Shown here piece by piece: positions 13,560-62,250 of a stretch of DNA of 64,000 nt. Every line of letters starts with the position of its first letter. Position 1 is the first letter of the stretch. The translations under genes were made by a program, and so were the position numbers. Origin of the DNA: a candidate division WOR-3 bacterium (GTDB lineage: Bacteria > Hydrothermota > Hydrothermia > JBDRYB01); assembly GCA_049969615.1 (NCBI GenBank), contig JBMFOM010000001.1, positions 32,083 to 96,082 on the forward strand, in the 5' to 3' direction. The notes beneath the pieces are model-generated. The model saw nothing but the letters and a program-made list of their open reading frames with translations, was not told the DNA's origin and ran no database searches.

Positions 13560-13788
13560 GTTTGGGCCAGGAGCGCTTTGTCCAAGAGAATAGGGTTCTA
13601 TAAGAGGAGTCCCTTGAAAAATCCCGCCACGAGGGCGTTTACTCTCAGGGTTCTCTTCTAGCTATGACGAGGCTCACATCGTGGTCGTAGGGTTTCTATG
13701 TCCCAACCGAGCTTCGGTTCTCTTCTAGCTATGATGAGGTTCACATATATGGACCAGGGACAAACCGGGATTTTTCAGGGGTTCCATA
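13560..13788 (+). repeat. Intergenic repeat family, copy A. It is extended and carries an internal ~60-bp tandem duplication.
   Basis: It shares ccaggagcgctttgtccaagagaa...cccctgaaaaatcccgcc...cagggttctcttctagctatgatgaggct...ggacaaaccgggatttttcagggg with the copies at 24491, 25777, 52138 and 62069. The segment ggttctcttctagctatgacgaggctcacat occurs twice. Confidence 0.85.
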
Positions 13789-13789
13789 A

Positions 13790-13818
13790 ATGATCCTGCG
13801 CAGAAAGTGGGTTATAAT
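13790..13818 (+). promoter_or_regulatory. Conserved promoter module ATGATCCTGCGC-N-GGGTTATAAT, with a leaderless ATG 6 nt downstream
   Basis: The sequence atgatcctgcgcagaaagtgggttataat is followed by atcttt and then ATG at 13825. Confidence 0.6.
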
Positions 13819-13824
13819 ATCTTT

Positions 13825-59640: not shown

Positions 59641-61656
59641 TCAAAGGTATGGCTCAACCATTTTCCTGAACTCTTCCTCGGAAATGACCCTCACGCCCAA
59701 CTGTTGGGCCTTCATGAGCTTTGAACCAGGGTTCTCTCCCGCCACAACATAGTCCGTTTTCCTTGAAACAGAACCGGTCGCCTTTCCTCCCAACCTGACA
59801 ACAAGGGCCTCGGCCTCTTCCCTTGTCATTCCGGAGAGGGTTCCGGTGAAAACGAATGTCTTGCCAGAGAGGGGGGCCGGGCCCTCTGGTTTCCCGGCGT
59901 ATATGACCCTCACGCCCGCTTTGAAGAATTTCTCTATTATCCTCCTGTTGTGCTCCTGCCTGAAGAACTCGGTGAGGCTTCTGGCTGTTTCTGGGCCTAT
60001 GCCCTTTATTGACATAAGGGTTTCTTCGGATGCGCTGGCAAGCTCTTCCAGGCTTGAGAAGTACTCGGCCAACAGCGATGCAGTCACGCCCCCGACTCCG
60101 GGTATGCCCAGCGCGGCCAGGAATTTTGGAAACTCTATCTCCTTTGATTTCTCTATTGATGAAATGAGGTTCCTCGCGGAGAGCTCCGCGAAGCCGGGCA
60201 GGCCAATGACATCCTCGTATTTCAGATAAAATACATCAGCCGGATCCTTAACCAGGCCGGCCTCCACCAGGAGGGCCGCTGTCTTTCCGCCCAGGCCCTC
60301 AATGTCAAAAAGCCCCCTGCCAGCCATCTGGGCTATCATTCCGGCGAGTTTGGCTGGGCAAGCGAGGCCCGTGCACTTGTAATATGCCCCATCCTTGACA
60401 AGGGGAGCGGCATCCGCCGGACACCTATCAGGCGGCCTTATGGGTTGAGCGTCCGGAGGCCTCTTCTCCGGGATAACCGAGACCACCTCCGGTATAACAT
60501 CTCCAGCCCTCCTAACAAAGACCGTGTCTCCGATCCTTATGTCCATCTCCTCGGCCAGGTCGTAGTTATGCAAGCTGGCCCTCTGGACGGTCACACCGCC
60601 TATGTTCACGGGGTCAAGTATTGCTATGGGAGTCACGGTTCCTGAGGGCCCAACAGAGTGAATCACATTCCTTATAACCGATGTGGCCTCGCGGGGCTTG
60701 AACTTTCCGGCTATCCAGTATCTCGGCGCCCTCGCGGTTGAACCGAGGATCTCCCAAAGCGCGAGAACATTGACCTTTATGACCACACCGTCCATCTCAT
60801 ATGGGAACGAGTCCCTCATGGCCTCCATCTCCCGGTAGAAAACTATGGCCTCTTCTATGCCCTTGCATACTCGCCTGGGCGCGGAGACCTCAAATCCCGC
60901 CTTCTCAAGCCAATCAAGTATCTCGGATTGCCTGGCGAAGCTAATCCCTTCGGCGAAACCGACCCCCCATGCGACGAACCTCAGAGGCCTGGCCGCGGTT
61001 ATTTTGGGGTCCAACTGCCGGAGACTGCCCGCGGCCGCGTTCCTGGGATTAGCAAAGGTAGGTTCTCCGGCCTCCGCGAGCCTCCTGTTGAGCTCGCGAA
61101 AGTCCCTGACCCGCATTATAACCTCGCCCCTTACATCAATTCTCGGTGGCGGAGCCTCGGAATACAATCTGAGGGGCAGGTTTCGGATTGTCCTGGCGTT
61201 TAGGGTTACATCCTCGCCAACCAGGCCATCTCCCCTGGTCGCCGCGACCTCCATGGTCCCGTCCTGATAAACGACCTCAAGCGATGTCCCGTCAAACTTG
61301 GGCTCAGCGATATATTCCAAGCCAGAGGACATCGCGGGGCCGAGAAGCCTCTCAACCCTGCCGTGGAAATCCATGAGCTCGCGTTCGTTGCGGGCATCGT
61401 CCAGGGAGACCATTTGCTGGGTATGACGATACTTTGTGAACTCCTCTCGCGGGGTGCCACCAACCCTTTGTGTTGGAGAATCAGGGGTCCTGAGCTCTGG
61501 CCAGCGCTCCTCTATCTCAATGAGCTCTCGCTTAAGCTGGTCGTATTCCTGATCCGAAACAAGAGGCCTGTCCAAAACATAATAATAATAATCGTATTTG
61601 TTTATGAGATCGCGCAGTTCCCGTGCCCTCCGGGCCGCGCTTTGCCTGTCCACCAT
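59641..61656 (-). CDS. ligA: NAD-dependent DNA ligase
   Basis: The KxDG adenylation motif ([13 protein letters not shown]), the zinc-finger Cys cluster (CPADAAPL...[10 protein letters not shown]), an HhH region and a C-terminal BRCT domain are all present. Confidence 0.95.
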
Positions 61657-62018
61657 TATCTAGCAGAAGAGAAGTAGTTCTGAGCCTCGCCCACGCTGGC
61701 AAACGCCCTGAGAACAGTCCGGAAGCCCATCATCTTGAAAACGCGCTGGACCTGACCCTTCATGTTCGCCAGGACCATGTCTCCGCCAGCCCCGTGGGCT
61801 CTCCTCAGGGAACCGATCAGGCTCCCCCATCCAGACGATGACACGAACTCAACGTTCTCCAGGTCTACGATGATCTTCACCCATCCGGAGGCTATTATCT
61901 CCCTTACGCGCTTGGCAAAGCTCTCGGAGGTAACCGTGTCCAGGTTGCCAACGAGGGTTAGTATAATGACCTCCGGATCATCCGGGGCCATCTTCTGAGT
62001 AATAACTAGCTCGTTCAT
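61656..62018 (-). CDS. STAS-domain anti-sigma factor antagonist (SpoIIAA-like)
   Basis: The real start [10 protein letters not shown]...[12 protein letters not shown]... follows the STAS fold pattern. The ORF track's 5' extension runs into repeat copy E. Confidence 0.7.
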
Positions 62019-62068
62019 TGGCCCAAAGTATATTGGAGAAGTTTTGGCTGGTTCAAGCTCAAGACCCC

Positions 62069-62250
62069 TGATAAAGTAGCAATAACCTACTGGTTTGGGG
62101 GAGGAACACTTTGCCAAAGAGAACAGGGTTCTAAGGGGGGCCACCTGAAAAATCCCGTCCCGAAGGTATTTCCTCATGGTTCCATTCTAGCTATGGTGAG
62201 GCTCCCGGATGGGGACAAAGGACAAACCGGGATTTTTCAAGGGTTTCATA
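62069..62250 (+). repeat. Intergenic repeat family, copy E (full length)
   Basis: The sequence tgataaagtagcaataacctactggtttggggga...ctttgccaaagagaacagggttctaagggggg...cctgaaaaatcccg...ggttccattctagctatggtgaggct...ggacaaaccgggatttttcaagggtttcata aligns with copy C along its whole length. Confidence 0.85.

Follow-up and report, generated by a model that had tools for sequence, protein, structure and literature searches.

Enterobacterial BIMEs are mosaic in composition, and the non-autonomous derivatives of IS200/IS605 elements known as PATEs lack terminal inverted repeats and target-site duplications, carry a hairpin near one end, and show a strand bias of the kind expected for single-strand transposition. 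BOX elements of Streptococcus pneumoniae are built from modules in the arrangement boxA-boxB(n)-boxC and are reported to have orientation-dependent effects on neighbouring genes (PMC3049150). The GI REPINs of Pseudomonas fluorescens SBW25 consist of conserved inverted 16-mers on either side of a looser spacer, with the starts of the 16-mers 71 nt apart (PMC3116915). The repeat family described here comes from a metagenome-assembled genome of candidate division WOR-3, and the window, which is the whole 64-kb stretch of DNA that was analysed, is a housekeeping region of the chromosome with type I-B cas genes, the dcw cluster, dnaN, ligA, bamA, and fabD. It contains six solid copies of the repeat (designated A to F), all intergenic, non-coding, and on the plus strand, which range from 65 to 230 nt in size and are 71 to 86% identical. 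On balance, we favor the interpretation that the copies belong to a mosaic family of interspersed, non-coding repeats that is specific to this lineage, probably derives from a non-autonomous mobile element, and is now decaying. The mobility of the family, the class of enzyme involved, and selective neutrality are what we infer.

The first-pass annotation listed five copies, and all five were found at or near the positions given for them, on the plus strand. A sixth solid copy, F, at 9397-9461 (E = 3e-16), had been overlooked. An nhmmer profile built from the family copies recovers them with E values of 1e-16 to 5e-64. Each of the diagnostic blocks has three to four matches in the window, compared with 0.00 expected from 100 dinucleotide-preserving shuffles, and the 16-mer has 10 matches compared with 1.42 expected from the same number of such shuffles. 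An independent, low-coverage ENA assembly of a near-identical strain includes an 859-nt contig that ends 24 nt inside copy A, and therefore the repeat is not an assembly artefact. The break in that contig falls at copy A, as assemblies do at repeats. If the density seen here, six copies in 64 kb, were typical, the genome as a whole would carry many; REPINs occur in tens to hundreds of copies per genome.

Only copies C (25769-25957, plus strand; E = 4.6e-64) and E (62060-62252, plus strand; E = 6.4e-62) are full length. Their homology extends from AAGACC (25769 in C, 62060 in E) to TTTCATAA(T) (25957 and 62252), so that the unit, previously put at about 180 bp, is indeed a repeat unit but has a length of about 190 nt. 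We divided it into six modules, for which copy C serves as the reference: M1 (25769-25801), M2 (25802-25840), M3 (25841-25863), M4 (25864-25897), M5 (25898-25925), and M6 (25926-25957), all on the plus strand. M3 carries the 5' arm of the inverted 16-mer pair, CCCCTGAAAAATCCCG at 25848-25863, and M6 carries the 3' arm, CGGGATTTTTCAGGGG at 25934-25949, both read on the plus strand. The two 16-nt arms of copy C are 100% complementary, with 70 nt between them and their starts 86 nt apart. The statement that the arms are exact reverse complements holds for copy C only, because copy A has one G-T position and copy E has two mismatches. Likewise, the crossed complementarity of TTTGTCC with GGACAAA, and also of AAGAGAAC with GTTCTCTT, is present in A and C but is broken in E.

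The remaining copies are truncated, internally deleted, or partly duplicated. Copy F (9397-9461, plus strand; nhmmer E = 3.2e-16) retains only the middle modules, namely the end of M2, M3 with the 5' arm CCCCCGAAAAATCCCG (9415-9430, plus strand), and M4. It lies between cas6 on the minus strand and an M14 peptidase gene on the plus strand, with a -35 box 31 nt farther on, at 9493. Copy A (13560-13789, plus strand) is a composite of two partial units without M1. The first (13560-13676) comprises M2, M3, M4, and part of M5, and the second (13677-13789) lacks the 5' arm and continues with M4, M5, and M6. Its arms are at 13611-13626, with one C-to-T change, and 13766-13781, and its end abuts the -35 box ATGATC (13790-13795) of the promoter of an FG-GAP gene. 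Copy B (24483-24591, plus strand; E = 1.8e-28) has M1 and M2, a deletion of M3 with the 5' arm, and an M4 truncated at ...TTCTAG, and is without M5 and M6; it is separated by 59 nt from the -35 box (24651) of a DegT-like open reading frame. The truncation point of copy F, ...CCCTTTAG, is identical to that of copy B, the two copies sharing the stop point TTCT(T)TAG, and the 5' arm is missing both from copy B and from the second unit of copy A. Copy D (52138-52208, plus strand; E = 7.8e-20) is the 3' third of the unit, with the end of M4, M5, and M6, and its 3' arm (52185-52200) has one A-to-G change. Copy E has all six modules and is the most degenerate copy: its arms (62142-62157 and 62228-62243) have two mismatches that leave 12 perfect pairs, and its TTTGTCC and GTTCTCTT blocks are mutated.

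This mosaic structure is like that of BOX and BIME elements, which are also composite intergenic repeats with modules absent or duplicated from copy to copy, predicted stem-loops, and frequent proximity to promoters. However, there is no sequence similarity to BOX, the variable module of BOX is a tandem array whereas the variation here is by deletion and partial duplication, and the ISSpn2-like terminal inverted repeats that belong to BOX have no counterpart here. With REPINs the family shares two conserved inverted 16-mers around a looser spacer (starts 86 nt apart here), an extragenic and non-coding location, a lack of classical terminal inverted repeats and target-site duplications, and decayed singlet remnants. 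Unlike REPINs, the 16-mers are not themselves short REP palindromes, the spacer is not paired into one long hairpin (with no compensatory change among three sequences, which gives low power), and a conserved 5' extension of about 80 nt (M1 and M2) lies outside the hairpin.

All six solid copies are in the same orientation (binomial two-sided P = 0.031). The first-pass annotation had described a single orientation, which is correct for the solid copies but not for two short, degenerate pieces of the GAACAGGGTTCT module that are inverted. The first, at 57057-57090 on the minus strand, is a marginal and weak M2 fragment, TTTGCCCAAGGGAACAGGGTTCT (23 nt at 87 to 91% identity; E = 0.003), upstream of the promoter of a HEAT-repeat gene. 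The second, at 62255-62290 on the minus strand, is a weak M2/M3-like piece that directly follows copy E, and its GAACAGGGTCCT pairs with 62121-62132 (12 nt, 92% complementary). Replication strand was considered as a cause of the orientation bias, but GC skew in the window merely tracks gene strand and is uninformative.

The family is not coding sequence. C and E are offset from each other by single-base indels, and in A and E the minus-strand frame is broken by a TAG. The minus-strand reading MKPLKNPGLS that had been noticed earlier does account for the spurious open reading frame extensions at 25662-26054, 50458-52254, and 61656-62177. The annotations affected are the BNR gene at 50458-52254 and the STAS gene at 61656-62177, which have wrong N-terminal extensions, and the open reading frame at 25662-26054.

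The alignment of C with E, together with the loci of relatives, places the ends of the unit at AAGACCyyTGATAAAG (5') and GGGGTTTCATAA (3'). These ends are not complementary to each other, and thus there are no terminal inverted repeats; the sole long inverted pair is internal. Nor is there a target-site duplication, as had been noted by eye and as comparison of the flanks of C (TGGT | TGAG) and E (GCTC | TGGG) bears out, with no common direct repeat. The family is like classical MITEs (Correia of Neisseria, RUP, and ERIC) in being 100 to 200 nt long, multicopy, non-coding, intergenic, strongly self-pairing, and without its own transposase. It differs in the internal position of the inverted 16-mers, the left arm being preceded on its 5' side by 79 nt of conserved sequence. 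Without terminal inverted repeats at the mapped ends and without target-site duplications, the family is not a classical MITE; a MITE-like element had been offered as one option.

The same absences, a hairpin near one end, and the location of six of six copies on the plus strand are shared with PATEs, features that are permissive rather than specific. PATEs differ in having a conserved tetra- or pentanucleotide 5' of the left end, for which the flanks of B (ATTT), C (TGGT), and E (GCTC) show no shared target motif. The target rule of IS200/IS605 elements was rejected on the same grounds. There is also no pair of similar subterminal hairpins. Among all annotated open reading frames of the 64-kb window there is no transposase, integrase, RAYT, TnpA/TnpB, or insertion sequence, in agreement with the earlier remark that no transposase or integrase is nearby, and the lack of TnpA/TnpB and of a RAYT gene in the window is a further difference from PATEs and from REPIN/RAYT systems, respectively. 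In REPIN systems the RAYT is a Y1 transposase, and its single-copy gene is flanked by REPs.

Comparison with relatives supports the view that the repeat was added to this genome. Loci of relatives totaling about 250 kb were sampled, with flanking proteins 81 to 92% identical, and no copy was found in them by blastn, by nhmmer, or with a covariance model of the hairpin domain. The sampled loci did not contain an analogous dispersed repeat of the relatives' own. The spacer upstream of Mrp is 325 nt here versus 98 to 149 nt in the relatives. Homology with the relatives at the Mrp and STAS promoters stops 3 to 15 nt from the edges of the repeat, which maps the ends of the element and shows the repeat to be an addition. 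Mobility itself was not seen: there was neither an empty site paired with a filled one in which synteny is kept on both sides, nor a polymorphism for the presence or absence of a copy, nor an excision junction.

Synteny with the relatives breaks exactly at two of the copies: a different gene lies upstream of STAS at copy E and upstream of Mrp at copy C. It might be argued from these breaks that the copies are rearrangement junctions, left when ectopic recombination or segmental rearrangement distributed a single ancestral stretch of intergenic DNA. Consistent with such scars, B and C flank one open reading frame as direct repeats, and target-site duplications and terminal inverted repeats are absent. 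However, gene order is poorly conserved among all these relatives in any case, and L008, L011, and L015 differ from each other on the upstream or downstream side of Mrp. Furthermore, the copies occupy six sites whose flanks are unrelated, and their ends are sharp and shared (AAGACC... and ...TTTCATAA), for which insertion of a defined unit is the simpler account, and recombination between copies presupposes that they had already spread. Recombination as the origin of the copies is therefore highly improbable in our estimation.

Searches beyond the relatives returned no further member of the family. A 22-mer pattern matched three loci in GTDB representative genomes and four in JGI metagenomes, with a match to the pattern over only 22 to 26 nt, and those examined were inside a methionine-synthase-like coding stretch (PEKPRFVAGS); these are chance matches. 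Pattern scans of viral contigs and blastn searches of plasmid and phage collections found no copy, and no CRISPR spacer matched the repeat.

The position of the copies relative to promoters bears on whether the host makes use of them. As had been described, copies A and C end just before a promoter, with 0 and 15 nt, respectively, to the -35 box of a TTGATC/TTGAAT-17/18-TATAAT promoter; for copy C this is the Mrp promoter (-35 TTGAAT at 25973). Copies B and C bracket the DegT-like open reading frame at 24719-25684, also as described. The truncated 5' edge of copy D is separated by 3 to 5 nt from a -35 box at 52129-52134 (minus strand), which belongs to the divergent promoter of the BNR gene, and the 5' edge of copy E by 3 to 4 nt from the -35 box of the STAS promoter at 62051-62056 (minus strand). 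The claim that copies sit on conserved promoters is accurate as a description of adjacency, but relatives without the repeat also have the Mrp and STAS promoters in front of the orthologous genes. These promoters are consequently older than the repeat and independent of it, and the possibility that the promoter is part of the repeat was rejected for the same reason.

The modules are unevenly conserved when scored as mismatch to the family consensus, which is 10.8% for the family as a whole. M6, the 3'-arm module, is the best conserved, with 4.7% mismatch, whereas the remaining five modules together have 12.0% (Fisher P = 0.0125). M3 and M6, which hold the arms, have 4.7 to 9.0% mismatch versus 13.4 to 17.2% for M4 and M5 (P = 0.0014), and this spacer between the arms is the least conserved part of the unit.

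One explanation for these patterns is that the repeat is a cis-acting DNA element in use by the host, an upstream regulatory or architectural platform in fixed orientation that modulates the adjacent promoters. It might do so through paired putative protein-binding sites, for example for the lineage-specific helix-turn-helix protein encoded at 12966-13514 or for a nucleoid protein. All six solid copies face a downstream plus-strand gene, with 0 to 60 nt between them and its -35 box or promoter region, M6 is the module on the promoter side, and the 86 nt between the starts of the inverted 16-mers correspond to about eight helical turns. For BOX modules, both stimulation and inhibition of downstream genes have been reported, according to orientation (PMC3049150). 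The strand bias of the copies and their location on the upstream side of promoters could stem from a host function and need not mark the sites where insertion was tolerated. However, the distance from arm to -35 box is variable (0, 15, and >50 nt), and three copies are missing an arm (the 3' arm in B and F, the 5' arm in D). The genes that would be served are unrelated in function (a peptidase, an FG-GAP protein, the DegT-like open reading frame, Mrp, FabD, and an Ada-like protein), and the orthologous Mrp and STAS promoters do without the repeat in relatives. Thus, we consider a regulatory role of this kind unlikely.

Another possibility is that the unit specifies a structured RNA on the plus strand, such as a small RNA, a cis-regulatory leader, or a guide-RNA-like scaffold, with a long hairpin or a pseudoknot. 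Copy C folds at -67.1 kcal/mol, which is better than shuffled sequences (z = -2.9), and the minimum free energy fold has a stem of 16 to 22 bp that closes a branched interior. The crossed complementarities in A and C and the fact that the sole arm change in A yields a G-U pair on the plus strand also speak for an RNA. In addition, B, C, and E have an extended -10-like TGATAAAGT in the 5' block, which only in copy C is accompanied by a TTGGCA -35 box. In contrast, copy E folds no better than shuffled sequences (z = -0.2). None of 52 pairs in the RNAalifold structure had a compensatory change among three sequences, a comparison of low power, and the covariation term was unfavorable (+1.45). The pseudoknot, proposed earlier as one of two alternative RNA structures, likewise lacks covariation, with compensatory changes in 0 of 31 pairs, and its helices are disrupted in copy E, which breaks five of the 31.

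At the gathering threshold, Rfam 15 matched only CRISPR repeats in the whole window and nothing in the repeat family, and at E <= 10 copies C and E gave either nothing or chance snoRNA-like matches caused by UGAUGA. The concern that the copies might be fragments of a known RNA family can therefore be set aside as far as Rfam is concerned. A hammerhead-like core was also considered and rejected; the CUAUGAUGAGG block has an A where the essential C belongs and is mutated in E, and there was no ribozyme model match. The predicted promoters stand between the repeat and the genes, with TATAAT 7 to 8 nt before the ATG of several genes, and hence the repeat is outside the 5' leaders. No intrinsic terminator was seen after the unit on the plus strand. 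Three to four of the six copies are without parts that any functional fold would need: the putative promoter block is missing in A, D, and F, and one arm is missing in B, D, and F. The riboswitch or small RNA that had been suggested is not supported, given the lack of an Rfam match, the lack of covariation, and the predicted promoters 3' of the repeat, and a structured RNA family of any of these types is very doubtful.

The interpretation as a dispersed, non-coding genome repeat, which was among those first put forward, is supported: the copies are intergenic, non-coding, and truncated, deleted, or duplicated to varying extents, the relatives lack them, and the neighborhood contains no partner gene. 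If that interpretation is correct, the unit would have spread in an ancestor of the present WOR-3 genome. The inverted 16-nt pair in M3 and M6 can form a long hairpin in RNA or in DNA that is single-stranded, and an enzyme whose gene lies elsewhere in the genome may have mobilized the copies in trans. Such an enzyme might recognize the conserved 3' module and the hairpin, as in the relationship of REPINs with RAYTs or of IS200/IS605-type elements with their single-strand transposase. Single-strand mobilization in trans would be in keeping with the strand bias and with the absence of both terminal inverted repeats and target-site duplications. In a compact genome, the only insertions to persist may have been those in the few gaps that tolerate them, immediately upstream of -35 boxes, and later decay would have proceeded through point mutation, deletion or partial duplication of modules, and truncation up to neighboring promoters.

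A more specific proposal pairs the repeat, as the non-autonomous partner, with a single-strand transposase that is domesticated and inherited vertically, in a symbiosis like that of REPINs and RAYTs, with the locking of the orientation on the promoter side reflecting host use. We regard this as quite improbable. In a more extreme version, the unit may give rise to a transcript that acts as a guide-RNA-like scaffold, for which the promoter sequence next to it would supply the 3' guide. We know of no REPIN-RAYT-like system described in candidate division WOR-3.

As it stands, the repeat family is an ordinary kind of bacterial genome feature that opens no new question. Its recognition is of practical use in annotation, because it explains spurious minus-strand open reading frames and wrong N-terminal extensions, and the family probably also causes contigs to break when the same organism is assembled. 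It marks two points at which gene order differs from that of relatives, and with it the phylum, which is known from metagenomes alone, gains an unnamed family of interspersed repeats. If a link to a RAYT-like or other single-strand transposase were true, it would extend the REPIN type of lifestyle outside the Proteobacteria and Cyanobacteria.

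The five intergenic copies of the repeat described in the first-pass annotation are present in the sequence where it had placed them, at 13560-13789 (copy A), 24483-24591 (copy B), 25769-25957 (copy C), 52138-52208 (copy D), and 62060-62252 (copy E). A sixth solid copy, copy F (9397-9461; E = 3e-16), had been missed. It was found by three routes: direct-repeat finding, a blastn search of the window with the copies as queries, and an nhmmer profile derived from them, which over the window yielded E values of 3e-16 to 5e-64 for the six copies. The diagnostic blocks of the family occur three to four times each versus 0.00 expected, and the 16-mer, counted together with its reverse complement, is found 10 times versus 1.42 expected (100 dinucleotide-preserving shuffles in each case). 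The single orientation that had been proposed applies to the six solid copies, all of which are on the plus strand (6/6; p = 0.031), but not to two short, degenerate, inverted pieces of one module (57057-57090, E = 0.003, and 62255-62290). In another, independent assembly from ENA, which represents a near-identical strain, an 859-nt contig terminates 24 nt inside copy A, demonstrating that the repeat is real and that it breaks assemblies.

Copies C and E are full-length. Their homology runs from AAGACC (25769 and 62060) to TTTCATAA(T) (25957 and 62252), with 83-84% identity and single-base indels, so the unit, first put at ~180 bp, is about 190 nt long. Of its six modules (M1 to M6), M3 contains the 5' arm, CCCCTGAAAAATCCCG, and M6 contains GGACAAAC plus the 3' arm, CGGGATTTTTCAGGGG. 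The remaining four of the six copies are mosaics. Copy A lacks M1 and carries an extra, second partial unit without the 5' arm; copy B has M1-M2, lacks M3, and ends within M4 at TTCTAG, an end point shared with copy F, which consists of M3-M4 only; and copy D has kept just the final third. In pairwise comparison the copies are 71-86% identical. The best-conserved module is M6: its mismatch to the consensus is 4.7%, versus 12.0% across the five others (p = 0.0125) and 10.8% for the family as a whole. Conservation is lowest in the spacer modules M4-M5 (13-17% mismatch to the consensus), and the difference in mismatch between arm modules and spacer is significant (p = 0.0014). The arms, previously described as exact reverse complements, are so only in copy C; copy A has one G-T position and copy E two mismatches. 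Similarly, the crossed complementarities TTTGTCC/GGACAAA and AAGAGAAC/GTTCTCTT hold in copies A and C but are broken in copy E.

One earlier suggestion was that the repeats are cis-regulatory RNAs. No Rfam family matched the repeat, even at E <= 10. Copy C folded better than its shuffles (z = -2.9), and copy E folded no better than its own (z = -0.2). In covariation tests on only three sequences (A, C, and E), which have low power, RNAalifold found 0 of 52 pairs compensatory with an unfavourable covariation term, the suggested pseudoknot had 0 of 31 compensatory pairs and five pairs broken in copy E, and nothing spoke for a selected fold. There is no terminator after the unit on the plus strand, the predicted gene promoters lie downstream of the unit, and in half of the copies either an arm or the putative promoter block is absent. 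Therefore, a riboswitch or leader was rejected, and a family of sRNAs transcribed from the unit is unlikely.

The "conserved promoter module" previously noted beside the repeats is a predicted near-consensus sigma-70 promoter (TTGATC or TTGAAT, 17-18 nt, TATAAT) with an unusually conserved spacer (the whole module reading TTGATC-ctgcgcNggaaaNtgggy-TATAAT). Such promoters are predicted on the plus strand at 9493-9521, 13790-13818, 25973-26002, 56466-56495, and 57130-57159 and on the minus strand near 59620. The spacer conservation suggests either a promoter grammar specific to the lineage or a site for a shared regulator. At 13826, 26010, 62018 (minus strand), and 13514 (minus strand), the ATG comes 7-8 nt after TATAAT, a spacing suggestive of leaderless mRNAs. 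The 3' ends of copies A, C, F, and B are 0, 15, 31, and 59 nt, respectively, from the -35 box of the downstream gene. The 5' edges of copies D and E are 3-5 nt from the -35 boxes of divergent minus-strand genes, and by sequence inspection that of copy A is at most about 15 nt from a weaker promoter-like site of a divergent HTH gene. The HTH protein adjoining copy A (12966-13514) is lineage-specific, with one homologue (50% identity) and an identical entry among 5.8 billion clustered proteins. Two copies (A and C) had been described as sitting directly on conserved promoters; they do adjoin them, but the promoters are not part of the repeat, because relatives without it retain the Mrp and STAS promoters in front of the orthologous genes. 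Homology to the relatives in these two upstream regions stops no more than a few bases from the edges of the repeat, which maps the ends of the element and identifies it as an addition beside older promoters. A host role for the repeat as an upstream DNA element is improbable, and the repeat is probably neutral.

The relatives (L008-L026) are genomes with Mrp or STAS proteins 81-92% identical. In the loci sampled from them, about 250 kb, neither copies of the repeat (blastn, nhmmer, and a covariance model of the hairpin domain) nor an analogous dispersed repeat of their own was found. The spacer upstream of Mrp, a protein 100% identical to one encoded on a 111-kb contig of a candidate division WOR-3 MAG, is 325 nt here versus 98-149 nt in the relatives. 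In two relatives (comparison of L019, L020, and L023) the STAS-ligA pair comes after a Fer4/CCG gene, only 16-35 nt away from it. Here, upstream of the conserved STAS promoter (61656-62060 region), copy E and a divergent Ada-like gene replace the relatives' sequence, and there is a similar break upstream of Mrp at copy C. C and E are exactly the points at which gene order departs from that of the relatives, although gene order is generally loose within this group; repeat copies thus coincide with both synteny breakpoints examined. Elsewhere, a segment with a 21-nt inverted repeat in the ferredoxin-HEAT gene spacer (56896-56916/56950-56970; 86% complementary, arms 33 nt apart) is missing from the aligned spacer of L019 and could represent another small palindromic insertion, unrelated to the repeat.

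Pattern scans of viral contigs and blastn of plasmid and phage collections did not find the repeat. The M6 22-mer ACAAACCGGGGTTTTTCAGGGG matched three loci in 185,579 representative genomes and four in JGI metagenomes, all in distant phyla (L001-L007, e.g., L002 2240-2340) and limited to the pattern itself. In the loci examined, the opposite strand encodes a conserved PEKPRFVAGS(M)GPT stretch, which we take to be methionine synthase. These loci were rejected as chance matches; loci that match so short a pattern are not homologous to the repeat.

The window is ordinary chromosome (CRISPR array, type I-B cas operon, panC, glycosyltransferases, dnaN, the whole dcw cluster, gltX, fabD, bamA, ligA). 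As first reported, it has no transposase or integrase, nor is a RAYT-like protein among its annotated genes; no tRNA genes were found in it. The CRISPR array (34-1458), which extends past the left window edge, has 22 identical 30-nt repeats, GTTTCAATCCCTCATAGGTAGGCTATGAAC (Rfam CRISPR-DR2), and spacers of 35-38 nt, none matching the window or the repeat family. The cas operon next to it, on the minus strand (1849-9300), comprises cas1, cas4, cas3, cas5b, cas7, an unannotated 495-aa ORF that is probably the large subunit, and cas6. The dcw cluster is canonical except for a HEPN-domain ORF (226 aa; 33910-34590) between murC and murG.

The mapped ends have no terminal inverted repeats and no target-site duplications, as the latter had been judged by eye, and the copies have no common flank motif. 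The repeat, for which a MITE-like origin was one earlier suggestion, is therefore not a classical MITE, and it does not obey the IS200/IS605 target rule. Formally, its organization is closest to that of REPINs, in which two conserved 16-mers are inverted around a less conserved spacer; the starts of the 16-mers are 71 nt apart in P. fluorescens (PMC3116915), compared with 86 nt here. Unlike REPINs, the arms are not REP palindromes, there is an extra conserved ~80-nt 5' extension, and no RAYT is encoded within the window. In module-level variation, the mosaics of BOX elements (PMC3049150) and BIMEs are closest. The repeat is a lineage-specific, decaying, non-coding mosaic family, most likely a remnant of a non-autonomous element that would have been mobilised in trans. 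Mobilisation was possibly via a single-stranded intermediate, which would fit the strand bias and the absent terminal repeats and duplications.

The copies are all intergenic, as claimed, once real start codons are applied. The minus-strand MKPLKNPGLS reading does account for a spurious ORF (25662-26054), and it also gives wrong N-terminal extensions to the BNR (50458-52254) and STAS (61656-62177) genes. Three ~41-nt direct repeats within the BNR-repeat protein gene (51094-51449; 150-165 nt spacing) probably reflect internal repeats of the protein. Direct copies B and C do bracket a DegT-like ORF (24719-25684), whose Pfam match covers only positions 27-154 of a 360-position profile and which is unrelated to the gene upstream of Mrp in the relatives (BLASTP E > 0.6). 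This ORF, lying between two repeat copies, may thus be a gene that has been truncated or relocated. The practical value of recognizing the family lies in correcting gene starts and in explaining assembly breaks.
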